A DNA stretch of 64,000 bases from a virus. The notes beneath the pieces were generated by a model, which worked only from the letters and a program-made list of their open reading frames with translations, was not told where the DNA came from and ran no database searches. The translations under genes and the position numbers were made by a program. This document shows, one piece after another, positions 27,717-49,999 of this stretch (positions are counted from its first letter, which is position 1; every line of letters starts with the position of its first letter). The DNA lies in IMG/VR virus record IMGVR_UViG_3300020536_000010, positions 1 through 64,000 of that record; one strand, 5' to 3'.

Positions 27717-30700
27717 ATGTCTACTCCATCTAGTTTGTATGCCGAAAAAATTTTTTCTGAGCATCCAATAGCGTTCTGGCCCCTTGACGACAAGGCAGAT
27801 TATGTGTCGCTTATATCCGAAACAAATAGAGATTTGCGTTTATGGGATACAGACAACGGAACTGTCGAAAACATTACTTCTATATTAGACGAACCATTTT
27901 CAGATAGTTTTGTGTCTAGAGTTTCGGCATCATCAGCAACTGGAGATAATTTTTTTGTTTCTGCAGTTAGCCCAAATTTAATAAATTTTAATGTTTTAAA
28001 TGAAGATCTTTCTACTTTTGCTATAGGTGCATTTGTTTATACTAGCAGCTCTTATATTTCTGGATTTGAAATTGGATATCAATATTTTGATGAATCTAGC
28101 GGAGAGTTGGTAGAAAAAACAAAATTTTATTCAACTGAAATAGTTAATAATTGGATTTTTATTTCAGAAACATTCAATATGCCAACAGACAATGTTTCAG
28201 CTAGGCTAGTAATTAAGGCTAAATTTTTTAATGGCGATAGTCTTTCAAACTATAAATTTTTAGTTAATGGTATATCTTTTGGACAATGGTCTGAAGAGTT
28301 CAATGCCTCATCTTTAGGAATTACTCCAGTAGAATTGCCATCAAACATATTCAATGCTGAAAATATTTTTGGAATTGAGGCAAAAGCCTATGGGTTGCAG
28401 GACCTTGACGGCTATTATTTAGTTAGAAAAAATGCATTATCTGCTAAAAATTCTGGAATCCCCATGGTTTTTGGGGCCTCAAATAGTACTATAATTCAAC
28501 AAAGTGGTGGAGCAATTCCATCATTAATAATTCCTGGTCAAGGATTTTTAAATAATTCTGGCAAATATAAGGATTACACTTTTGAGTTTTGGACTAGAAT
28601 TAATTGTAACTCAGTAGTAGAAAAAAGAATTTTTGGAAATATACGTGGAACAGATGGAGTTTATGTTCAGGGATCAACAATAATACTAAAGGTTGGAGAT
28701 TACCTAATTAGGCACTATGTTGGAGAATGGTATAGGCCAATGCTAATTCAGATTAGGTATTCTACATCTTCGATTAGTTTATTTATTAATGGAGAACAGG
28801 TAGGTGAAACACTTATAAATGTTGATAATGTAGATTTCCCAGAAAAAAACCAAACAGCAGGAAGCATCATTTTAGATAATGATTGGCTAGGATTTTGGTC
28901 ATATGACGATGTGGCCCCAATCGAGATTGATGGCATAGCTATTTATGGATATAGGGTTCCACTTCAGGTAGCTAAAAGAAGATTTGTTTATGGCCAAGGG
29001 GTTGAGTTTCCAGAAAATATTAATAATGCTTATAGTGGAAGTTCCGTCTTTATTGACTATCCATTTTCTAAGTATGCCAAAAACTATCAATATCCATCAT
29101 TAGGGAAGTGGGTTCAGGGTGCCTATGACAACTTGGCTATTAATGGAAATGCGATTGAATTTCCACAATACTCTGCCCCAGAAGCGAAGTTTAGCAATAA
29201 AACAAGCTCTGAGTGGATTATAGATTTGGAAAATGCACAAAATGAAATTAATGATAACTTTATTAAGTTTAGGCCAAATAGTAGTTGGGATTCAACCAAT
29301 GGCCAGCTATTTTTTGAAAATTTTAATTTAGCTAATGAGCAGCTAAAAGCTTTTTATATTATTTGTAAAGAGATTTCAACGCCAACTACAGAACAAACGC
29401 TGATTGCAATTGAGAATAGGGCAACTGGAAATGTTTTCGAAATAACCCTAGACAGTGATAGCATTAACTATAAGTTGTGGGAAAATGGAAACTATTCATT
29501 ATTATTATCAAAATCTAGACAATACTTAAATGGTGTTGGGGAAAAAGCAGTTATTGGAATAGATCTCCAAAAATTCTCCAGCTACTACGGTGAAAAGATC
29601 GCAGACTTTTTTGGAAAACTAACCACAATGTCTATTTACGTTGGCTCAACTAAAAATTTATCAAATACATTTTTAGGTAATATATATGAAATTGGTTTTT
29701 GTTCATTAAAGAATTTATCTAAAATTTCTTCTATTTTTGCTGCCGATGGCCTAAGCTTTGCTGACACATTCATTGACGGCTCTGAGCTATATACAAATAC
29801 GGCAGATGCTGGAGAAGACGTTCAAGAGTCTGCTATTTTTCAATTCTTATATGACGGTGGAACTCTTGGCCAATACTCATATTCTATTTTAGAAAATCAC
29901 ATACCTAGCTACGGAGTAATTGCAGGAGAAGATTTATCTGGATTTGGGATATTGGTTGAGGCAGACTCATCTTGGCAAGATCAAATCCCTCTATCATTTT
30001 TTGCTAAAGAAACTACTGATTCACGTGGAGACTCAAGGCTTGATCTAGATTTTATCCAATTTAATATTAATTATCCAGCACCATCTATTTTTGTTCAGGA
30101 AACAGAAGAGGGTTCGTGGACATATGCAGAGCTACAGTCTGAATATGCCAATCCAATACAAAGAACCTATGATTCTTTAGATAATCAGCTTTTTACTGGT
30201 TTTCAAAATTATGAAGATTTAAAAAATAAATCTGTAAGCACCTATAAATACGACACCCTAAATTCTATAGTAAAAACATACATAACATTTCAATTGCTTG
30301 AAAATGGGGCTAATAGATCACTATCTACATTTACAAATACAGAGCTTGCACCTAAAAATGGAATTGTTGTACCTGGGTCAAACTGGATAAACACAAAGTA
30401 TGAGGTTGTTGATAATATGATAATTTATCCACCCCAGTCAATTTCCTTTAATAATCTTGCTATTGTTACTCATATTGAAATATCTTCTAGAAATATTAAA
30501 AATACTCCAATTTCTATTAAGTCCCTAGAGTATGCATCCATGGCACTTTCTGACACCATGCCAACATCCATTGGGACTAGATTTGGTAATGACATTTATC
30601 CATATAGAAAAGAAGGGTTCTATCTTACATATAAAAAACAAAATCCATTCTCTATTTATAAGGGAAGCACTCCCTATTTATATTTAACTAGAAATAGTGG

Positions 30701-31421
30701 AATAACCATAAGGGGCGGATATGACCCATTGATAAATAGGGGTATTTCCATACCACTAAATAATTCAAAATCAGATAATTTTAAAGTTATAGCAATGCAA
30801 ATGGCATTAAGGTTTGACGAAGACTTTTTTCCATATGGGGCAATGCAGCTTTTCGAGATTCAGAGTAAAAACTCTTACATTCGTGTATATGCTGCTGCAA
30901 GTGATCCATCTGGAAAACGTGCAAAACTATACGCTATTAATTCTAGGGGAGAGTTAGAAAATGGAATAGCGTTTTACCTAAATGGAAAAATTGTAAAGGA
31001 TCCAGTTTTAACCATAAAGGAGTGGGCAATGCTTGGTATAAGATTTGCAAATATTCAAGAATTTTCTAATTTTGCTGGGGCACTTAGGCTAACCGCACCA
31101 CTGACATATAATAATATTTCTTATTACAAATCAACTAATCTTCAAGAGGTTCAAAATGAGATTACAAGGCCTTGGTTTAAGGTTAAAAACCTTGGCTCAT
31201 TAACTCTAGATTGGGGCTTCTGGCCATCATATCTTTGGGATGGCGTTTTGTTTATAGCAAAAACTAGCTATTATGGAGTAGACCCATCAGACATATATAA
31301 GATATATACAGGAACAAATAAAATAATTATTGATGATGAAATAGAGTCTGTGTTTGGAGATTACCAATATTCAGTCAAAGAAAACATAGAGTGGCGTTCT
31401 CAGGTATACCAGGCAGTATAA
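27717..31421 (+). CDS. large virion protein with LamG/concanavalin-like segments
   Basis: PIAFWPLDD; TFEFW...LFINGEQV...IDGIAIY. Confidence 0.6.
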   Translation: MSTPSSLYAEKIFSEHPIAFWPLDDKADYVSLISETNRDLRLWDTDNGTVENITSILDEPFSDSFVSRVSASSATGDNFFVSAVSPNLINFNVLNEDLSTFAIGAFVYTSSSYISGFEIGYQYFDESSGELVEKTKFYSTEIVNNWIFISETFNMPTDNVSARLVIKAKFFNGDSLSNYKFLVNGISFGQWSEEFNASSLGITPVELPSNIFNAENIFGIEAKAYGLQDLDGYYLVRKNALSAKNSGIPMVFGASNSTIIQQSGGAIPSLIIPGQGFLNNSGKYKDYTFEFWTRINCNSVVEKRIFGNIRGTDGVYVQGSTIILKVGDYLIRHYVGEWYRPMLIQIRYSTSSISLFINGEQVGETLINVDNVDFPEKNQTAGSIILDNDWLGFWSYDDVAPIEIDGIAIYGYRVPLQVAKRRFVYGQGVEFPENINNAYSGSSVFIDYPFSKYAKNYQYPSLGKWVQGAYDNLAINGNAIEFPQYSAPEAKFSNKTSSEWIIDLENAQNEINDNFIKFRPNSSWDSTNGQLFFENFNLANEQLKAFYIICKEISTPTTEQTLIAIENRATGNVFEITLDSDSINYKLWENGNYSLLLSKSRQYLNGVGEKAVIGIDLQKFSSYYGEKIADFFGKLTTMSIYVGSTKNLSNTFLGNIYEIGFCSLKNLSKISSIFAADGLSFADTFIDGSELYTNTADAGEDVQESAIFQFLYDGGTLGQYSYSILENHIPSYGVIAGEDLSGFGILVEADSSWQDQIPLSFFAKETTDSRGDSRLDLDFIQFNINYPAPSIFVQETEEGSWTYAELQSEYANPIQRTYDSLDNQLFTGFQNYEDLKNKSVSTYKYDTLNSIVKTYITFQLLENGANRSLSTFTNTELAPKNGIVVPGSNWINTKYEVVDNMIIYPPQSISFNNLAIVTHIEISSRNIKNTPISIKSLEYASMALSDTMPTSIGTRFGNDIYPYRKEGFYLTYKKQNPFSIYKGSTPYLYLTRNSGITIRGGYDPLINRGISIPLNNSKSDNFKVIAMQMALRFDEDFFPYGAMQLFEIQSKNSYIRVYAAASDPSGKRAKLYAINSRGELENGIAFYLNGKIVKDPVLTIKEWAMLGIRFANIQEFSNFAGALRLTAPLTYNNISYYKSTNLQEVQNEITRPWFKVKNLGSLTLDWGFWPSYLWDGVLFIAKTSYYGVDPSDIYKIYTGTNKIIIDDEIESVFGDYQYSVKENIEWRSQVYQAV

Positions 31422-39869: not shown

Positions 39870-39908
39870 AACTGCCCTAGCAATTGGTTGCTGGGGCAGT
39901 TTACTTTT
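39870..39908 (+). terminator. terminator after tail tube gene
   Basis: AACTGCCCTAGCAA-ttgg-TTGCTGGGGCAGTT then T-rich. Confidence 0.8.
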
Positions 39909-39922
39909 GGTATAATAGTATG

Positions 39923-40618
39923 ATGGCCACTAGAGTGTATGAAACAGCAATTATCAAGCTAATAGATGGCACTCTAATTGAAATATCCCCATTAAAAATT
40001 AAATATTTAAGACAATTTATGGATGCCTTTGAGTTTGTAAAAACTGCCAAAGATGACGACGAGGCCATATTTTTTCTTTCTGAATGTGCAAGGCTTTGCA
40101 TGCAACAGTATTATCCATTAATAAAAACAATATCTGAGTTAGAAGATAATATTGATTTAAAGACTATTTATAAAATTATTGATATTGCAGCTGGGGTAAA
40201 AATTCAAAAAGAAAGCAATAAAGAAGTTAAAGATCAAGCAATTAGTAGTGGGGCAGATTGGTCTGGGCTAGATCTTGTTAAGCTAGAGGCTGAGGTATTT
40301 TTAACTGGTATTTGGAAAAATTATGAAGAAATGGAAGCAAGCATTTCGATGCCAGAACTAACGTCTATCTTAGAAACAAAAAGAGAGCTTGAGTATAATG
40401 AAAAAAAGTTTTTTGCAGCAATACAAGGAGTTGATTTAGATAAGCAAACAGGAAAGTCTGATTCAAATGCTTGGGAAAAACTTAAGGCAAAAGTGTTTAG
40501 CAAAGGAAAGACTAGCGATCCAAATGACATAATTTCCCTTCAGGGGGATGCTGCCAAAAGGGCTGGGTTTGGTATTGGTATGGGTCTGGGGTATGAAGAT
40601 TTAACCAAAAAAACATAG
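39923..40618 (+). CDS. tail assembly chaperone, long (GT-like) form
   Basis: N-half aligns with 40669 ORF; C-half WKNYEEMEASISMPEL; lies between tube and tape measure. Confidence 0.7.
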   Translation: MATRVYETAIIKLIDGTLIEISPLKIKYLRQFMDAFEFVKTAKDDDEAIFFLSECARLCMQQYYPLIKTISELEDNIDLKTIYKIIDIAAGVKIQKESNKEVKDQAISSGADWSGLDLVKLEAEVFLTGIWKNYEEMEASISMPELTSILETKRELEYNEKKFFAAIQGVDLDKQTGKSDSNAWEKLKAKVFSKGKTSDPNDIISLQGDAAKRAGFGIGMGLGYEDLTKKT

Positions 40619-40668: not shown

Positions 40669-40980
40669 ATGGCAATTACCGTAAGCGAAGAAAAAACAAT
40701 TAAACTATTAGATGGACAGGAAATTACAATTAGGCCTTTGAAGGTTTCCCTTCTAAGACCATTTTTGAAAAAGTTCCAAGCTATCCAGGATGTTGCAGAA
40801 GACAATGAGAAGTCAATGGATCTTTTGCTAGAGTGTGTCCAGATTGCTATGCAGCAATTTAAACCAGAGCTAGCTGAGGACATCAAGGCACTAGAAGAGG
40901 TTTTGGACCTTCCAACAGTCTATAAGATTGTTGAAGAGGCATCTGGAAACTCAACTATTTTTGGTGCATTAAACAAGTAA
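40669..40980 (+). CDS. tail assembly chaperone, short (G-like) form
   Basis: IKLLDG..I.I.PLK...LDLPTVYKI; own promoter and GGGAGG RBS. Confidence 0.7.
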   Translation: MAITVSEEKTIKLLDGQEITIRPLKVSLLRPFLKKFQAIQDVAEDNEKSMDLLLECVQIAMQQFKPELAEDIKALEEVLDLPTVYKIVEEASGNSTIFGALNK

Positions 40981-41011: not shown

Positions 41012-44000
41012 ATGGCTGATGATATTAGATCTGACATTAGAATTGGTGTCGATACGTCCCAGGCTATTGCAGAAATTAAGCAGCTGCAAAGACAAATATC
41101 TCAGCTAAATACTCAGCTAATCAAAAGTGGTGCCCAGCAGGCACAATCTGCACAAAATATTCAAAGAGATTTAATTAAAAATATTAATTCTACTGGAAAG
41201 TTTGCAGCAAATGTAAGAACAATTTCTACAACGGCAGAATCATTTACAACTGCTCTTGAAAGAAATAAACTCTCTATGGGGGAGTATTTTAGATATGCTG
41301 GTGCCTCTACAAAAACATTTGGCAGATTATTCAAAAATGAATTTGCCACTATTGAAAAAGTTGCTCGTGAAAGAGTAAAAACTCTTCAGACTCAGTATAT
41401 AAAGCTAGGTCGTGACGCTAATGGTGCTATGAAGGCCATTTCGGTACGACCTTTAGCTTTAGATATGGAAAGCCTTGCAACCAAAACAGCTCTTGCAGCT
41501 CAAAGGCAGCAATTATTTAATCAACTTCTTAAGCAAGGCTCTACAAATCTTTTAAATTTTGGTAAAAATACCCAGTGGGCTGGTCGTCAGCTTATGGTTG
41601 GTTTTTCTATTCCACTTGCTTATATGGGTGCAGCTGCTGCTAGAGAATTTAGAAAAATAGAAGAACAAGCCATTAGATTCAAGCGTGTTTATGGAGATGC
41701 TTTTTCAACTCAAGCAGAAACAGACAAAGCTTTAGAAAACATGAAACAGCTTGCAGATGAATTTACAAAATACGGTATTGAAGTAAATAAAACTTTAGAG
41801 TTAGCAGCCGATGTTGCCCAGATGGGTCTTAAGGGTGCAGATTTACGTGCACAGGTAACAGAGGCTACTAGGCTTGCAGTCCTTGGTGAGGTAGAACAGC
41901 AAGAGGCTATGGCAGCTACAATTTCTGTTACAAATGCATTTGGAACAGCAGCAGAAGACCTGGCTGAAAAAATAAACTTTTTAAACGCAGTTGAAAACGA
42001 AACCGTGACTGCAATTCAAGATTTAACTATTGCTATTCCAAAAGCTGGTCCAGTAGTTAAGCAGCTGGGTGGAGATGTGGAAGACTTGGCATTCTTCCTA
42101 ACAGCCATGAAAGAGGGCGGCATTAATGCATCAGAAGGTGCTAACGCACTAAAGTCTGGTCTTGCATCTTTAATTAATCCAACCGATAAAGCAGCAGCGA
42201 TGCTTCAAGGATTTGGAATTAATCTTAGACAAATTGTTGAAGTGAATAAAGGAAATGTTACTGGCATTGTTATTGACTTTGCTAAAGCACTTGATACCCT
42301 AGATCCACTTAGCCGTGCAAGAGCTATAGAGCAGTTATTTGGAAAATTCCAGTTTTCTAGGCTCTCAACGTTGTTTCAGAATGTTGTAAAAGAAGGAACT
42401 CAGGCATCAAAAGTTTTGGCACTAGCTAGCAAAGATGCTGGGGAGTTGGCCATTATTGCAGAACGAGAATTAAAGCGTGTTGAAGAGTCCCCATTATTTA
42501 AGTTTCAAAAACAACTTGAAAAATTCCAGGCTGCACTAGCCCCATTAGGAGAGCAATTTTTAAAGGCAATAACACCATTGCTTGAGTTTGGAACGGATGT
42601 TCTTAAAAACTTTAATAATATGAGCGAAGGGGCTAAACAGTTTGCAGTAATAGCAGCTACAGTTGTGGCAGGTATAGGTCCAGTATTTTTGATGATGTTT
42701 GGTCTTATTGCTAATGGTGCTGCAAACATTATTAAGCTTTTTGCCAATTTAGCAAGAATATTTACTGGAGTTGGAAAAAACTCTAAAGACTTGGGCATAT
42801 CAACAGAATATATGACCCAGCAGCAACTAGAAGCTGCAGCTGTAGCAGCATCTCTTAATCAAACACACTCTAAGTTAATTCAAACATTTACTTCTGAGGC
42901 GGCAGCTATAGATAAGTTAGCAATTTCATATGGTAAAGCAATTCTTCAGCAGTCCAGACTTCTCGGTGTTGATCCAGTGACTGGAGTGCCACTTGGTGCT
43001 GGTCCAAAAGCAAGACCGCCTAAAAAATTAGCAAGGGGAATTGTTTCTGTTCCAGGTCCAAAAGGTGCAGGGGACGTTGTCCCAGCCATGCTATCTCCTG
43101 GAGAAGCAGTTATTCCAACCAAACAATCACAAAAATATGCTGGTTTAATCCAGGGTATGATAGATGACAATATTCCTGGATATAGTGTTGGTCGTAATCC
43201 ATTTGCAGGATTATTAAGAAAAAATCAAAATAATCCAATTGGAACAGTTTTAAACTTTATTTTGGGCAGAGGAAAATCACTTACAGAATACGAAGGGATG
43301 GCAGCTCGTAGATTTTTAAGGTCTCGTCCAAATATTGCAGTAAGAATGCCAATGGATAAGTTTAGTGAGCTTGCTTCTACCCCAGGCCAAAGATATAAGA
43401 GTCTTTTTGAAACAGGTTTTAGTAAAGCAGGAGATACCACAGCTAAAAGAGCACAGGCAGAGGCAAAGATTTTTGGTCTTCCAGAAAATATTGATCCATC
43501 AATGCGTCCAGTTTATGGGTACTTATATAAAAAAGAAAGAGGGCTTTATGATCCAAGACTTCCACTTAGGACAAGATTAGCTAATAAGCTTTTTGGAAGG
43601 GCTGGGTCATCAACACGTGGCAGTGAGTTAAGACATATATTTGGTTCTACTGGATCACTAATGAATCCAAAAACATTTAATTATGGCAATATTGCTATGC
43701 TTTTAAACAAGAGAAAAGTTGGAAAGCGTACAACATTTACTTTTGGAGACAGCTATCAGTCTCGCAATAATGAGTATGCAACGCCAGCACCTTTTGGCAC
43801 ATTAAGTGCAAGAAAAATAAAAGGTGCTTACACATCAAAGGATAAAGACTTCTTTGAGGCCCAGATTATGGGAGGATTTACTCTAAAAGATGTTAGAAGA
43901 ATTGTTGCTACAGAACCAGCTCTAATTCCACAAATTCAAAGAATATTGCAGGCCAATGGACTTAAAATTCCAGTAGGAATGCCAAGATTTTCCATGATGC

Positions 44001-47000
44001 AAAGACTTCAAAAGCTAGTTTATGGTAAAAAAATGTATGAAGAAAGACTTCCATTTACAGCCAAATATGGTCCAAAGGCTGGCAAATATACGATGCCACC
44101 AGTTAAAATTGGAAATAGAAGGGTTTGGCTAAATAATAGTTCTAGTGACGGCTTAGTTGGCACTGCTGTTAAAGACCAAACACAATCTAAAGCAAGAAGA
44201 GATCCACCATTATATTTTGATAAAAGCACATACTTGACGGCGGCTCATATGGAGCAGGCTGGGGTGTTAGGACAAAATCGCCAAGATTTTGAAAGAACTA
44301 TGCGAATGCATTTGGCAGATATGCGTAGAACTGGATTTATTAGTCAGGCAGAAGAAAGGCAGGCACAATCTAAGTTAGTTAATCTATTAGATACCTATCA
44401 GACAAAACAAAAAGCAGAAGTTTTTGCTAGCTATAGAGACAAGGTTGAATTTTTACCAAAAACTCTTAATCCAGAATTTGATACAACAAAAATACCTATT
44501 AAAGAATACATGAAAGATTTTTCTAGAATGCCAAAAGGATTAATAGGTTCTGGGATTTTGACAAGGATTCCTGATGATGCCAATATCCCAAATAAAGTAT
44601 TAAGAAGATATATTTTAACCTATAGAAAATCAGTGTTATCTTCAATAAAAGCACAAATGAATGCTGGAGCAACAGAATTAACAAATGAATCAATGTACCC
44701 AGCTTTCCAGGCAGCTGAACGCAAAGCTGAAATGTCAATTAAAGATCCAGGCATGAGAAGGCTTATACAACGAATTAATATGGAAAGCAATTTCCCAATG
44801 ACAATTGGTTACAATAAAGCAGGCGGCTCTGGATACTCAAGAGGAAGCTCAATTCTTAAAGAAAAATCTTATCAAAAGTTATTGCAAAAATTAAGAGAAA
44901 GAGGGGACTCAAGGCTTGAAGCTATTTTCCCAGGAATTCTAGATAAGGTTGACAAATATTATGTAAGTCAATCTAATATACAGGTTCCTAGAGATATGAA
45001 GGGGCAAATACAGCAATATATAGCAAATATGCCTGGAGGCAGAAATCAAAGAATTGCTACCTTAAATCAACTAATAGAAGATCTTCGTGGACTAACTCCA
45101 TCACAAAAAAGAGATGTGCTTAATAGGTTTATTTCTGGTCCAGTTCCTGATATAAAGCCAAAGACTAGTCTGCCATATCCAGTAAAGACACCTGTAGAAA
45201 GAAAAAAGGTAAGTCCAAAAAATTCATTTACAAATATAGACGATATAACTTCTCAAGCTTTTCTTCGCCGTAAAGGATTTTCTGTTGGATCACTAACAAG
45301 GATGCTATTGCCACTAATAGGACTTGCTGGCATTGCACAATTGTTCGGATCTAGTGGAGTTCTTAAAGCAGCAAACGGTGTGTTTTCAGTTCCAGGGCCA
45401 AAGGGTGCAGGCGACATAGTCCCTGCAATGCTTTCTCCAGGGGAATCAGTAATTCCTGCTAGACAATCAGCTAAATATGCCCCATTAGTTCAAGCAATGA
45501 TTAATGATAGCGTACCTGGATATAACGATGGTTTGCCTCCAAGTGTTGCAGCTAAAATGGGATTTAGAACACCAGCAGATGTTAATATTGCTAATTCACA
45601 AGAACTTGCAAAACAAACTGCAAAGGCAGGCGTATCGGAAAATCTTAAAAAAGCTGGAGCATTTGTTTCTAAAGTTGCCAAATCAACTGGGCAAAGGGCT
45701 ATTGCTGCAGCTAACAATTCTCCAGTTTTAGCAGCTTGGGCAGCAAAAACTTTTGGCAATGATATTGCAACTACTGGAGGAAGAACTTTTGAAGCAGGTA
45801 CTGGTGCAGAAATAAGGACAGATAAGCGTGGTATACAATATGGGTACATTCCTGGTCAGGGAAGAGTTTCTGTAGAGACTGCAAGAACAGCACAGGCAAA
45901 TGTCAACCAAGCTGCAGCCCCAAGAATGCCTGGTGCTGGAGCTGGCATGGGCCTTTCTGTGCTTGGTATGGGTGCAATGGCATATGGAATGTCTGGACAG
46001 CCAGGTTCTCAAATAGCTGGGGCACTCTCCATGCCATTAATGCTAGCCCCTATGCTTTTGCCAATGCTTGCAAATCCAATTGGCAAAGTCATCGCTGTTC
46101 TTGCATTATTTGCTGGAGCTATGTTCTTCTTACAAGAACAACTAAAAAATGCTCGCAAAGAAGGAATAAAAACTGCAGAGGCAATGACTATGACTGCAGA
46201 AAAACTACAAAAGATTTCTGAATTTTCTGGCAAGGTCACTGCGTCTGAACTAGCAGAGCGAAAGAGAGAAGATCAATTAACTGGTCAAGGATCTATAAAA
46301 CGTCAATTTGGTCAAACATTTTTAGAATCAGACATTGGCAAACAAATGCTAGCAGATGTTTCAAATATGCCTGGCAATAGAGCATCAAATATAGCCAATC
46401 AATTATCTTATGCAGTTCTTCAGGGTGCATTATCTCAACAGCAGGCAGCAAGCATTGGTGCCGCACTTAGTACTGAATTAAAAGATTTTTCAATTACAAC
46501 AAAAGTAACAGGTCAACTAGCTGCTTTATTTGGACCAAATGGTCAAAATTTACTAAAAGATCCTCTAGAAATTGCAATTGCTATCCAAGAGCAATCTGGC
46601 AGAGAGCAAGAAAAGTCCTATGAAAATGCAATTCAAAAAATAGAAGATAATGCAGCTATACATGGTGGAACTATTGGAAACTTAATTGGCGGCGGCATTA
46701 TGACTGCCGCTGGTGCAGTTATGGTTGCCACAGGATTCCTTGCACCATTAGGTCTTGCAATTAGTGCAGCTGGAATAGGAACTATGGTTGCATCTGGAAT
46801 TAATGAGGGGGTTGCAGATGGGATTGAAAATGCAAAAGCTGCAGCTATTGCAATTATTGCTGGAACAGAGCAGATTCGACAAAATCAAGGGCTGCTGGAT
46901 TCAGTAGAAAGTAGATATAATACCCAAATTGATGAACTAGAAGCTAAAAAAGAATCTGCAAAAACAGATAAAGAACGTTTAGAAATAGAAGATAAAATAA

Positions 47001-49999
47001 ATTCTAAAATTATAGAAAGAGATAATGCCCTTGTAAAGCTTAAAGGGAAAAATGATGAAATTTATAATAATTTAATAAAACAAGCCAAACAATTAGGCCC
47101 AGAAAATTTTCAAGCAACATTTGAGCAAGCTTTAGATTATAGAGCAGAAAATGCTCCACAAATAGTTAAAGATCAACTTGAAATTGCAAAGTCAGCACTA
47201 AAGGGGATGGAAGACAGTGATTTTAAAATTAGCTTACAGCTTGGGCTATTGTCTGAAGAATTTGATGCAACCACAGTTACTAATTTAATTAATTTAAATA
47301 AAGAGTCCAATGGAGAGATTGAGAAAAGCTTTAAGTTACTTGTAAGAGCAGAAGGAACTGCAAAAGCCAACCAGCTTATGCAAATTTTAAGCTCCTCCAA
47401 CCTAACAGCAACAGAGGTTGATGTAATAATGAATTATACAATGTCTAATAAACAAGATTTTGATACTGATTTAGAAGCTATTTCTCAGATTGTCGGAATG
47501 GCTGGAGAGTATGGTCTTGTTGTTAAGCCAACAGTAGAAAACATAGAAGAAGTCGGAAAATTTATTAAGGAAACAGAGAATTTAGATACTGGTAAGCCAA
47601 TTACAAGAAAAATACTTACTCAGTATCTAAAAGAGGGTGAGGGGGCAGACGGAAAGCCACTTAGTGCAAAGGCAATAGAAGAGCTTCAATATATGTTGGA
47701 TAATTGGGATGTTCTTACAAATGGAACGAATAAGCTTAATTATCAGGTCATGGTCGATTTCTTAATTGGAAATGCTAGCGATGCTGCAATTCAAGCTTTT
47801 TATTTAGCAAATAATCCAAAAGAATACGCTAAATTTATGGAGGGTGGACCACTTATTAATACCCCAGATGGTCCAGTAGGGTTTATAGATGAAGATGAAA
47901 GAGCAAAGATGCGAGCCTATTTCTTTGGACAGGGCAGCGGCGGCGATAATGATGACCCAGGTGAGGGAACACCCCCTGGTGGAGACACAGGAACCCCAGA
48001 AAATGTGCTAAAGCAATATGCAGATAGGTTAAAACGTATTCGCAATGCAGCAATTGATACCACAGGAACTGTGGATGAATTAATTAAAAGATTTAATATT
48101 TTAATGAAGCCTGGCTCAGCAACATCTACACTTTTCCGTGGCACTGACCAAAAACTATTATTTGCTGGATATAGCAAACAATTTATTGATGCTGTAATGT
48201 CAATGGATGAGGCAACAAGGTCTAAATTTGTATCTATTAAAAATGGAATCATAAAGGTTACTCAAGCAGGAAAAGACCTTAATGCTGCCATGTCTGAAAT
48301 AACACTTGGTGATGCTCAATTTAATATTGCTTCTGGCGTAGCAGACGTTAGAATGCAAATGCGAGCAATGGAAATATTAACCAAAGACTATGGAATGTCG
48401 GCTAAAGAAGCTTTTGAAATGGCCAAAGATGCATCTCTTGCATATGCAATAGTTACCAGAGGAACATCTGGTGAAATTCAAGATTTAATTAAGTGGACTG
48501 AAACACTTAGGCAAGAAAATGAAAAATTTGCAAGGTCTACCCCAGAAGGAATGCAGGCATTCTTAAGGGGTGAGCTAGATAAGGTTTTAGGGGCATTAGA
48601 TCTTGCAGATCAATATTTCCAAGCTCAAGAGCAGGCTGTAGAAAGAGACTTCCAAGACAAGATTGACCCAATTGCAAAATTAATTCGTGCAGCAGAACAA
48701 GACATAGTTAATTATCAAGACAAGATTGACGATCTTAACTATCAGCTAACATTAATTGAAGATCAAGAAAGCAAAATTAATGATGAATATGATAGAAAGT
48801 TAGAAGCTTTAGATAAAATTGAGCGAGCTAATGACTCTATTGCTGCACAGCAAAAGTCTCAGTTAGCATTAGCAGATGCACTTAGCCAGGGAGATATTTC
48901 AGCAGCAGCACGGGCAGTTCAAGAGATTAGATCCCAGGCAGCATCTGACAGTATTCAGTCACAAAGGAATCTTCTTGAAGAAGATAGACAAAGAAGGCTT
49001 GATGCGTTAGCGGTATCACTTAATGGAAAACTTCTCACTAGAAAACAGATTGAGGAAGAAATAAAGACATTGCAGTTCGAAATTGCTAAGATTGAAGAAC
49101 AAAGGCTTGAGCCAAATCAAAAGCTTGTAAGAGAATATGAAATACAAAGAGATCTTGCTTTGGAAGCAATTGGTGAAAATGGATACCTTGGAAAGACAAA
49201 AGCTGAGTGGGACAAAATTGCAATAGCTGCAAATAAGGCTACTGTTGAGTCAAAGGCATTTAATGATTCTGTTGTTGCAATTCTGTCATCAATAAAGGGA
49301 TTTACTTTTGGTCCAGATGGCAAGCTGCTACCATTTAATATAGAAGAATTTAAACAAGGTCTAACCCCACCAGAAAGCCCTAGCAGCGAAGAGCCAAATA
49401 CAAATGAAAATCCTGAAGATAGCATATACACTGGCCCATCACGAGAAGAGCTTCGTAAACAACTTGACGCACTTTATATAAAAATTAAAAATGCCGAGGC
49501 CTACATAGCTAAAATGAAAAAAGCTGGAAAACGTTTAGAAGCTGCAAATGCAACAGATAAATTAAATCAATATCTTGCTGAAGAGAAAGCACTGAGGGCA
49601 CAATTTAATGCAGCTCCTATGGGTGGTTCTGGTGGAGGTGGTGGTGGTCCAGCCCAAATGATGATGGCTAAAGGTGGTATGGTTCCAAAATATCTAAGAA
49701 TGGGAGGTCTATTACCATATAAAGCTGAGGGTGGTTCAATATTTAAGCCATTGGGAACAGACACTATTCCAGCAATGCTTACTCCTGGAGAATTTGTAGT
49801 TCGTAAATATGCCGTAGATAAATTTGGCGTAGATAGGCTAAAGGCCATAAATAGTGGCACATACAAGGGTGACTCAGTGTATAATTATGAGGTAAGTGTT
49901 AATGTCCAAACTGACGCAAACCCTGATCAAATTGCCAGGGCAGTTATTGGACAAATAAGACAGATTGAGTCCCAAAGAATTAGGGGGAATAGGTTCTAA
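41012..49999 (+). CDS. tape measure protein with inserted cargo domains
   Basis: 2995 aa; TP901-type core (AGPVVKQLGG..ANALKSGL); helical and TM segments; 3x PAML(S/T)PGE motif. Confidence 0.9.
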   Translation: MADDIRSDIRIGVDTSQAIAEIKQLQRQISQLNTQLIKSGAQQAQSAQNIQRDLIKNINSTGKFAANVRTISTTAESFTTALERNKLSMGEYFRYAGASTKTFGRLFKNEFATIEKVARERVKTLQTQYIKLGRDANGAMKAISVRPLALDMESLATKTALAAQRQQLFNQLLKQGSTNLLNFGKNTQWAGRQLMVGFSIPLAYMGAAAAREFRKIEEQAIRFKRVYGDAFSTQAETDKALENMKQLADEFTKYGIEVNKTLELAADVAQMGLKGADLRAQVTEATRLAVLGEVEQQEAMAATISVTNAFGTAAEDLAEKINFLNAVENETVTAIQDLTIAIPKAGPVVKQLGGDVEDLAFFLTAMKEGGINASEGANALKSGLASLINPTDKAAAMLQGFGINLRQIVEVNKGNVTGIVIDFAKALDTLDPLSRARAIEQLFGKFQFSRLSTLFQNVVKEGTQASKVLALASKDAGELAIIAERELKRVEESPLFKFQKQLEKFQAALAPLGEQFLKAITPLLEFGTDVLKNFNNMSEGAKQFAVIAATVVAGIGPVFLMMFGLIANGAANIIKLFANLARIFTGVGKNSKDLGISTEYMTQQQLEAAAVAASLNQTHSKLIQTFTSEAAAIDKLAISYGKAILQQSRLLGVDPVTGVPLGAGPKARPPKKLARGIVSVPGPKGAGDVVPAMLSPGEAVIPTKQSQKYAGLIQGMIDDNIPGYSVGRNPFAGLLRKNQNNPIGTVLNFILGRGKSLTEYEGMAARRFLRSRPNIAVRMPMDKFSELASTPGQRYKSLFETGFSKAGDTTAKRAQAEAKIFGLPENIDPSMRPVYGYLYKKERGLYDPRLPLRTRLANKLFGRAGSSTRGSELRHIFGSTGSLMNPKTFNYGNIAMLLNKRKVGKRTTFTFGDSYQSRNNEYATPAPFGTLSARKIKGAYTSKDKDFFEAQIMGGFTLKDVRRIVATEPALIPQIQRILQANGLKIPVGMPRFSMMQRLQKLVYGKKMYEERLPFTAKYGPKAGKYTMPPVKIGNRRVWLNNSSSDGLVGTAVKDQTQSKARRDPPLYFDKSTYLTAAHMEQAGVLGQNRQDFERTMRMHLADMRRTGFISQAEERQAQSKLVNLLDTYQTKQKAEVFASYRDKVEFLPKTLNPEFDTTKIPIKEYMKDFSRMPKGLIGSGILTRIPDDANIPNKVLRRYILTYRKSVLSSIKAQMNAGATELTNESMYPAFQAAERKAEMSIKDPGMRRLIQRINMESNFPMTIGYNKAGGSGYSRGSSILKEKSYQKLLQKLRERGDSRLEAIFPGILDKVDKYYVSQSNIQVPRDMKGQIQQYIANMPGGRNQRIATLNQLIEDLRGLTPSQKRDVLNRFISGPVPDIKPKTSLPYPVKTPVERKKVSPKNSFTNIDDITSQAFLRRKGFSVGSLTRMLLPLIGLAGIAQLFGSSGVLKAANGVFSVPGPKGAGDIVPAMLSPGESVIPARQSAKYAPLVQAMINDSVPGYNDGLPPSVAAKMGFRTPADVNIANSQELAKQTAKAGVSENLKKAGAFVSKVAKSTGQRAIAAANNSPVLAAWAAKTFGNDIATTGGRTFEAGTGAEIRTDKRGIQYGYIPGQGRVSVETARTAQANVNQAAAPRMPGAGAGMGLSVLGMGAMAYGMSGQPGSQIAGALSMPLMLAPMLLPMLANPIGKVIAVLALFAGAMFFLQEQLKNARKEGIKTAEAMTMTAEKLQKISEFSGKVTASELAERKREDQLTGQGSIKRQFGQTFLESDIGKQMLADVSNMPGNRASNIANQLSYAVLQGALSQQQAASIGAALSTELKDFSITTKVTGQLAALFGPNGQNLLKDPLEIAIAIQEQSGREQEKSYENAIQKIEDNAAIHGGTIGNLIGGGIMTAAGAVMVATGFLAPLGLAISAAGIGTMVASGINEGVADGIENAKAAAIAIIAGTEQIRQNQGLLDSVESRYNTQIDELEAKKESAKTDKERLEIEDKINSKIIERDNALVKLKGKNDEIYNNLIKQAKQLGPENFQATFEQALDYRAENAPQIVKDQLEIAKSALKGMEDSDFKISLQLGLLSEEFDATTVTNLINLNKESNGEIEKSFKLLVRAEGTAKANQLMQILSSSNLTATEVDVIMNYTMSNKQDFDTDLEAISQIVGMAGEYGLVVKPTVENIEEVGKFIKETENLDTGKPITRKILTQYLKEGEGADGKPLSAKAIEELQYMLDNWDVLTNGTNKLNYQVMVDFLIGNASDAAIQAFYLANNPKEYAKFMEGGPLINTPDGPVGFIDEDERAKMRAYFFGQGSGGDNDDPGEGTPPGGDTGTPENVLKQYADRLKRIRNAAIDTTGTVDELIKRFNILMKPGSATSTLFRGTDQKLLFAGYSKQFIDAVMSMDEATRSKFVSIKNGIIKVTQAGKDLNAAMSEITLGDAQFNIASGVADVRMQMRAMEILTKDYGMSAKEAFEMAKDASLAYAIVTRGTSGEIQDLIKWTETLRQENEKFARSTPEGMQAFLRGELDKVLGALDLADQYFQAQEQAVERDFQDKIDPIAKLIRAAEQDIVNYQDKIDDLNYQLTLIEDQESKINDEYDRKLEALDKIERANDSIAAQQKSQLALADALSQGDISAAARAVQEIRSQAASDSIQSQRNLLEEDRQRRLDALAVSLNGKLLTRKQIEEEIKTLQFEIAKIEEQRLEPNQKLVREYEIQRDLALEAIGENGYLGKTKAEWDKIAIAANKATVESKAFNDSVVAILSSIKGFTFGPDGKLLPFNIEEFKQGLTPPESPSSEEPNTNENPEDSIYTGPSREELRKQLDALYIKIKNAEAYIAKMKKAGKRLEAANATDKLNQYLAEEKALRAQFNAAPMGGSGGGGGGPAQMMMAKGGMVPKYLRMGGLLPYKAEGGSIFKPLGTDTIPAMLTPGEFVVRKYAVDKFGVDRLKAINSGTYKGDSVYNYEVSVNVQTDANPDQIARAVIGQIRQIESQRIRGNRF
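43022..43192 (+). repeat. tape-measure PAMLSPGE module copy 1
   Basis: GIVSVPGPKGAGDVVPAMLSPGEAVIP...KYA.L.Q.MI.D..PGY. Confidence 0.85.
45365..45532 (+). repeat. tape-measure PAMLSPGE module copy 2
   Basis: GVFSVPGPKGAGDIVPAMLSPGESVIP...KYA.L.Q.MI.D..PGY. Confidence 0.85.

Follow-up and report, generated by a model that had tools for sequence, protein, structure and literature searches.

The window analysed here comprises the first 64,000 nucleotides of the IMG/VR virus record IMGVR_UViG_3300020536_000010 (79 kb, completeness ∼70%), whose source is an uncultured siphophage, and it contains a gene for a phage tail tape measure protein (P0001). This gene comprises one open reading frame (41012..49999, on the plus strand, as are the features within it given below) and encodes 2,995 amino acids in as many codons. 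Its product is a tape measure protein based on the PhageMin_Tail core (PF10145; 41753..42343, residues 248-444), which Pfam scores at 88.9 bits and thus above the cut-off of 33.2, on matches to PHROG tape measure families over residues 51-642 (down to E 1.3e-97), and on gene order, as it lies 3' of two chaperone-like genes and 5' of the genes for the distal tail and minor tail proteins. At roughly one quarter of the length of this protein starts an insert that is bounded by copies of a repeated module, and the first domain of this putative cargo resembles SopF, an ADP-ribosyltransferase (ART) effector of Salmonella.

The module, called M hereafter, is a 55-residue unit with the consensus GDxVPAML[S/T]PGExV, for which no family was matched in Pfam or NCBIfam. 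Three copies were delimited, both as DNA repeats and with our own hidden Markov model (HMM) of the module: M1 (43028..43192, residues 673-727, containing GDVVPAMLSPGEAVIP), M2 (45365..45532, residues 1452-1507), and M3 (49721..49879, residues 2904-2956), which ends ∼40 residues from the C-terminus, is more diverged than the other two and includes the segment matched by PHROG 35029 (residues 2915-2948). The two copies that flank the insert had been described as near-identical in an earlier reading of the window made without database searches (the sequence-only reading). They are homologous and in register (43025-43192 versus 45365-45532, with a spacing of 2,340 nt), but share only 72% of their DNA and 70% of their protein positions (39 of 56 residues). 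Given this divergence, a longest exact DNA run of only 10 nt, and codon differences of which 16 are synonymous and 17 non-synonymous, the pair is clearly homologous but old. The sole relative of M by sequence in the PDB is the tape measure gp16 of mycobacteriophage Douge (8zdo_S), where two internal M-like copies (residues 978-1014 and 1426-1461) lie outside the resolved residues. As Douge is an unrelated actinophage, M is not confined to the family of the phage studied here.

The segment from M1 to M2 (43193-45364, residues 728-1451) is 724 residues long and strongly basic, with 16.9% K+R versus 8.4% D+E and an isoelectric point (pI) of 10.3, so that the sequence-only reading was right on its boundaries and in describing some 720 residues of basic, non-tape-like sequence. 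The part of the tape measure that follows M2 (residues 1508-2995) has a pI of 5.1. The same modules and the same domain were seen again in over 40 tape measures of relatives, and such recurrence shows that the arrangement is not due to chance.

An ADP-ribosyltransferase-fold domain of the SopF family

The first domain of the insert (43193..44152, residues 728-1047, with an HMM core at residues 756-1047) was characterized with Pfam, phmmer, profile searches and a structural model. The motif string from which the sequence-only reading had proposed a likeness to DUF3626 is present, with RYKSLFETG starting at 43391 and FFEAQIMGGFTLKDV ending at 43894, both within 43318-43910, and the likeness was borne out by comparison with the family itself. 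The Salmonella effector SopF belongs to DUF3626 (PF12294; PMC6682159), and an isolated segment of 240 residues matches this family with 27.6 bits (E 1.8e-6) for a gathering score of 27. When the domain was searched with phmmer against 1.84 billion representative sequences, 384 proteins were retrieved at E ≤ 1e-3, and many of these homologs themselves score 30-80 bits on PF12294, which backs membership in DUF3626 by transitivity. A profile built from 50 sequences (A2) matches SopF chains of the PDB entries 7dn8 (7dn8_C, E 1.2e-8) and 7dn9 (E 2.6e-7), and SopF was the only protein that it found among PDB sequences, where the single sequence retrieved nothing significant. A tblastn search with the insert gave no match in 50,697 phage records, and scans of metagenomes and viral contigs gave only six loci, of two kinds.

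The AlphaFold (AF2) model of the domain built with A2 has a predicted local distance difference test score (pLDDT) of 75.7 and a predicted template modelling score (pTM) of 0.70. A Foldseek search, which the sequence-only reading had proposed as a check, returned SopF as the two best matches of this model (E 4.2e-6 and 7.1e-5, probability 1.00), followed by other ADP-ribosyltransferases, namely DarT, CteC, CopC and the cholera/LT toxins. In VIA-align the model superposes on SopF with a Z-score of 11.5 over 187 residues (root-mean-square deviation, rmsd, 4.5), while Z is around 4 for the toxins of the R-S-E type. The domain likewise had no Pfam match to these cholera-toxin-like R-S-E enzymes (PF03496 and relatives). 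Three observations weigh against an assignment to SopF: the Pfam score is marginal for the isolated segment (27.6 versus 27) and falls to 15.7 bits on the whole protein, the TM-scores to SopF are modest (0.42-0.44), and DarT and SopF fit the model almost equally well (Z 11.3 versus 11.5). DarT (DUF4433) gave no Pfam match at E ≤ 1, and no DarT chain was found in the profile search of PDB sequences. Overall, the sequence profiles and the predicted model show the domain to be a member of the SopF family with an ADP-ribosyltransferase fold.

In SopF, most of the ADP-ribosylation is lost when Y224, Y240, or E325 is mutated to alanine (bioRxiv 10.1101/2024.03.28.587227). In the alignment of the profile to SopF (where SopF numbering equals chain numbering + 69), these three residues fall on the profile motifs RPiY, YG, and YiEaQ, and their equivalents in the tape measure, with codons checked, are Y835 (43514..43516), corresponding to the nicotinamide-contacting Y224, Y891 (43682..43684), corresponding to Y240, and E949 (43856..43858, in FFEAQ), corresponding to E325. 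E949 is the glutamate that the sequence-only reading had singled out as a candidate catalytic residue, and its alignment with a residue needed for SopF activity supports this choice. Entry 7dn9 (SopF with nicotinamide adenine dinucleotide, NAD) reads D at the E325 position. All three residues are invariant in 38 copies of the domain that are embedded in tape measures, and so are R813, E817, G836, G892, and D913. This invariance extends to the second ART copies found in two proteins (P0004 and P0006), which are only ∼28% identical. The confidence of the model at the conserved NAD+-site positions is 91-96. The residues predicted to contact NAD+ are intact, and their conservation argues for a working enzyme.

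Arrangement of cargo among related tape measures

Our own HMMs for the ART domain, for M, and for a second cargo domain (B, described below) were mapped on proteins fetched from relatives. In these the N-terminal 727 residues of the tape measure are 54-68% identical, and the tape-measure ART copies have an overall identity of 32-60%. The ART domain is bracketed by M in every mapped relative, in an order that varies: M-ART-B-M is found in the tape measure studied here and in seven others, M-ART-M-B in ten, and M-B-ART-M in two, and further arrangements comprise M-ART-M without B, an ART directly before the C-terminal M (P0034, P0037), and tape measures with two ARTs (P0004, P0006). There are also relatives with a 54-63% identical N-terminus that lack any ART. 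In one of them (L013, N-terminus 63% identical), the slot bounded by M (L013:7173-9611, tape measure residues 727-1539) carries an HAD IIIB acid phosphatase instead of the ART (PF03767, E 4e-16, matching at approximately residues 1321-1446). Reordered ART and B domains and the phosphatase of L013 are examples of the swapped cargo for which the sequence-only reading had proposed to compare relatives, and neither of the two findings that it had named as contrary to its proposal was made, i.e., a lack of DUF3626 or ART matches and a segment that is an invariant helical region in relatives. The comparison of these sequences shows a modular arrangement of the cargo in the relatives.

A search with M alone retrieved at least 903 clusters of proteins of 1,647-5,242 amino acids, nearly all of them annotated as tape measures. 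The ART is present in 50 of 101 proteins sampled in this way and occupies the first slot in each of them; all 101 have three to five copies of M. On a FastTree phylogeny of the N-terminal region of 133 proteins, the distribution of first-slot ARTs requires 10 changes, versus a mean of 41 (34-47) when the labels are shuffled, the count being an unrooted parsimony without branch support and the sample having been chosen in part for having the ART. The cargo has thus been passed on by descent for the most part, with repeated gains or losses.

Other contents were noticed in these proteins. The first slot of P0173 (residues 724-1017), and similar first slots in ∼22 tape measures without ART, look kinase-like by eye (GVGGAY, VFVKP, DKDLSPGN); Pfam and PDB sequence searches with the first slot of P0173 came back empty and did not confirm this impression. 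Small domains of C19orf12-like, LysM, CW_7, and PG_binding_1 types occur in several related tape measures (P0013, P0016 at residues 2722-2766, P0248, P0249, P0255), the C19orf12-like membrane domain of P0013 (residues 1861-1969) scoring 25.2 bits, below the Pfam cut-off of 30.

Domain B and the genomic setting

The remainder of the insert contains domain B (44195..45085, residues 1062-1358), a conserved and predicted mostly helical domain. It is 24-28% identical in at least 13 relatives, and our own HMM maps it in at least 20 tape measures. No match of domain B was found in Pfam, NCBIfam, PADLOC, or PDB sequences. An AF2 model built from three sequences is mostly helical and too poor for use (pLDDT 43.6), and the best score against the ESM Atlas (0.77) is below the usable level. 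Two hydrophobic stretches were detected on the Kyte-Doolittle scale (19-residue window, >1.5). The first (42632..42748, residues 541-579) lies ∼95 residues before M1, and the second (45278..45367, residues 1423-1452) runs directly into M2.

The late operon is of the standard siphophage type. On the 5' side of the tape measure gene it encodes a portal (31808), a head protease (33500), a capsid-type structural protein (34871), an Ig-domain protein, and the two chaperone-like proteins, and on the 3' side a protein of 213 residues in the position of a distal tail protein, followed by a minor tail protein of 1,456 residues. The adjacent genes at 39884-40618 and 40669-40980, 5' of the tape measure gene, have an N-terminal PHROG family in common (phrog_10504) and look like a tail chaperone pair made as two separate genes instead of by frameshift. 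Directly 5' of the portal region lies an open reading frame for 1,234 residues (27717-31421) without a PHROG match at E ≤ 1e-5. No gene for an eraser enzyme, whether a Macro domain or an ADP-ribosylglycohydrolase (ARH), was found in the 79-kb record, which is ∼70% complete. The identical tape measure protein is present on contigs of up to 114 kb, and the capsid protein is ∼41% identical to capsid proteins of Streptomyces phages of ∼130 kb. We also considered assigning a host from the metagenome-assembled genomes (MAGs) into which related contigs (L013-L022) had been binned. Their labels include Bifidobacterium, Flavobacterium, Acidimicrobiaceae, Methylococcus, a cyanobacterium, and others, with several Bacteroidota from lake water. 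As these labels contradict each other, they are unreliable and were rejected as indications of the host; they probably reflect mis-binning.

Probable delivery into the host cell

Tape measures occupy the tail tube as a trimer and precede the DNA on its way into the cell envelope, which is established for lambda, Douge (PMC13033339), and T5 (PMC10038345). By analogy, the ART cargo would leave the tail first, and the enzyme would arrive at the host as soon as infection begins. After refolding, it would use cytoplasmic NAD+ and ADP-ribosylate a host target in the service of takeover or counter-defence, a parallel to T4 Alt with the tail instead of the head as the route. We therefore favor, as a reasonably probable account, that the cargo of this tape measure consists of a SopF-type ADP-ribosyltransferase and the helical domain B, and that it is expelled ahead of the DNA to modify a host target. 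By the same analogy, an enzyme that modifies the host is probably introduced into the cell before the phage genome enters. An effector ejected with the tape measure, whether for takeover, anti-defence, or toxicity, is also what the sequence-only reading had suggested, and it may describe the role of the domain.

The M modules, each preceded by a hydrophobic stretch, are probably joints at which cargo is exchanged by recombination. The protein is perhaps also cut there, in analogy with T5 pb2, which is cut between a hydrophobic stretch and its enzyme domain while the tail is assembled, both pieces remaining in the tail until infection, when they are expelled (PMC10038345). More tentatively, and with appreciable doubt, one may regard M modules as exchangeable slots throughout the giant tape measure family of at least 903 clusters. 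This family would then represent a general enzyme-injection platform in which cutting at M, during assembly or entry, would free a SopF-type ART, or elsewhere a phosphatase or other enzymes, to disable a component of the host membrane or host defence at the site of DNA entry.

Several points speak against such a delivery. NAD+ is cytoplasmic, so that access of the cargo to the cytoplasm is one of the main difficulties. Three folded domains of ∼35 kDa side by side would exceed the lumen of a tail tube (∼4 nm), and the domain would consequently have to be stored unfolded or staggered and be refolded afterward. SopF requires a eukaryotic ARF GTPase as a cofactor, and the phage enzyme might similarly need an activator. 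Cutting at M, moreover, is conceived purely by analogy with T5 pb2.

The substrate could be a protein, as for SopF, but the basic charge and the likeness of the fold to that of DarT would also permit a nucleic acid. It seems rather unlikely, even so, that the delivered enzyme ADP-ribosylates DNA or RNA where the phage enters, be it incoming or that of the host, in the manner of DarT (single-stranded DNA) or of Tpt1-type enzymes (RNA). The model does superpose on DarT structures with Z 10.3-11.3 and an rmsd of 3.3-3.7, lower than that to SopF (4.5 at Z 11.5), and on tRNA 2'-phosphotransferase with Z 8.1; the cargo is very basic, with a pI of 10.6 for the ADP-ribosyltransferase-fold domain; and within the tail the tape measure is in contact with the end of the DNA (Douge, PMC13033339). 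Yet sequence homology links the domain to SopF, which modifies a glutamine in protein, and not to DarT, as both the lack of a DUF4433 match and the exclusive retrieval of SopF among PDB sequences indicate, and likeness of fold is no predictor of substrate among ADP-ribosyltransferases.

The DUF3626-like domain is not restricted to tape measures. It is fused to MuF (P0094, P0138, P0089) and to a portal protein with a SAP domain (P0150), and is joined elsewhere to classical ART domains (P0091, P0107, P0042) and to a 2H/LigT phosphoesterase (P0098). These fusions bear on the idea that the domain is active late in the producing cell, where it would act on proteins of the host or the phage, or else use up NAD+, while the tape measure is being synthesized, rather than being ejected as an effector. 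Tape measures are products of late genes, their translation takes place in the NAD+-containing cytoplasm, and ModA and ModB of T4 are examples of phage ADP-ribosyltransferases that are not packaged (PMC9503650). A free enzyme would nonetheless be the simpler solution for an intracellular role, and the domain is repeatedly fused to three different proteins of the virion (tape measure, MuF, and portal) that go into the host or face it, a pattern that is difficult to account for if location in the virion is of no importance, so that we regard activity in the producing cell as improbable. Further matches of the domain in the viral structure library BFVD come from cultured phages (Bacillus SP-15 and CP-51, Mycobacterium Larenn, and a Nodularia phage), from a "minor capsid protein," and from the giant viruses of eukaryotes Bodo saltans virus, Yasminevirus, and Tupanvirus; no tape measure is among the BFVD matches. 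Proteins with four or five DUF3626 domains in tandem were also seen (P0046, P0053, P0067, and others).

Still less credible is a role as an NAD+ glycohydrolase or killing toxin directed against non-immune cells instead of serving productive infection. DUF3626 is found at the C-terminus of the MuF fusions and of many multidomain proteins, in the style of toxin domains; such a use has been proposed for the MuF polymorphic toxins of temperate phages, and MuF toxins are documented (PMC5576092). In P0001, however, the domain is internal and not C-terminal, Pfam detects no MuF domain, and the tape measure gene is directly followed by the distal and minor tail protein genes, with no immunity-like small gene. 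No integrase gene was found in the 79-kb record (∼70% complete), and the ART is present in about half of a lytic-looking phage family of ∼110 kb. Finally, tape measures tolerate inserts, but that the domain is a mere structural spacer or plug, an enzyme fold without chemistry, is very hard to believe when all NAD+-site residues checked are kept in 38 of 38 copies at 32-60% identity, the 28%-identical second copies included.

The cargo domain can be compared with several known systems. It shares with SopF (PF12294; PDB 7DN8/7DN9) the sequence family, the ADP-ribosyltransferase fold, and the residues Y224, Y240, and E325 in aligned positions. SopF, on the other hand, is a free type III secretion (T3SS) effector of 374 residues that is injected into animal cells and was crystallized with its host cofactor ARF1, whereas the phage domain is embedded in a tail protein and its target must be prokaryotic; identity between the two is only 14-16%, and the SopF residues before ∼110 have no counterpart. 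T4 Alt, other virion-packaged ADP-ribosyltransferases, and polyvalent proteins are likewise NAD+-using enzymes carried in the particle and used at the start of infection (PMC9503650, PMC5512222), but the Alt-type enzymes reside in the head, as separate proteins or as fusions to head proteins, and belong to other ART families. As in MuF-toxin fusions (PMC5576092; Microbacterium phages, PMC7302621), an effector domain is attached to a virion protein, and DUF3626 itself occurs on MuF and portal proteins; the carrier here, by contrast, is a tape measure, in which the domain is internal and bracketed by repeats, with no immunity gene adjacent. T5 pb2 also has an enzyme domain within a tape measure, after a hydrophobic stretch (PMC10038345), yet that enzyme, a metallopeptidase, cuts the cell wall and works outside the cytoplasm, while the phage ART needs cytoplasmic NAD+. 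DarT has a very similar predicted fold, but differs in lacking a sequence-family match, and no DarG-like macrodomain partner was found in the record as far as it extends.

In the full-text literature on DUF3626 and on tape measures with ADP-ribosyltransferase or toxin domains, we found no description of a tape measure with such a cargo domain, and the main text of reviews on phage NAD+ and ADP-ribose systems (PMC9503650) and on polyvalent proteins (PMC5512222) includes neither a tape measure as carrier nor SopF/DUF3626. The tape measure described here joins two known kinds, ADP-ribosyltransferases carried in the virion and tape measures that bear an enzyme. The phage enzymes that are known to be injected together with the DNA are transported in the head, as is T4 Alt, and the known enzymes of tape measures cut the cell wall. 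If our proposal is true, an NAD+-using enzyme of a cytoplasmic type within a tape measure would represent a third route of effector delivery, and the SopF family, otherwise known from an animal pathogen, would gain a setting in viruses of bacteria. The slots bounded by modules in hundreds of uncultured phages, with their varied contents, suggest a natural system of exchangeable cargo, whose rules (the joints, folding in the tube, and release) would be open to direct study, and which may be a source of new anti-host or anti-defence enzymes.

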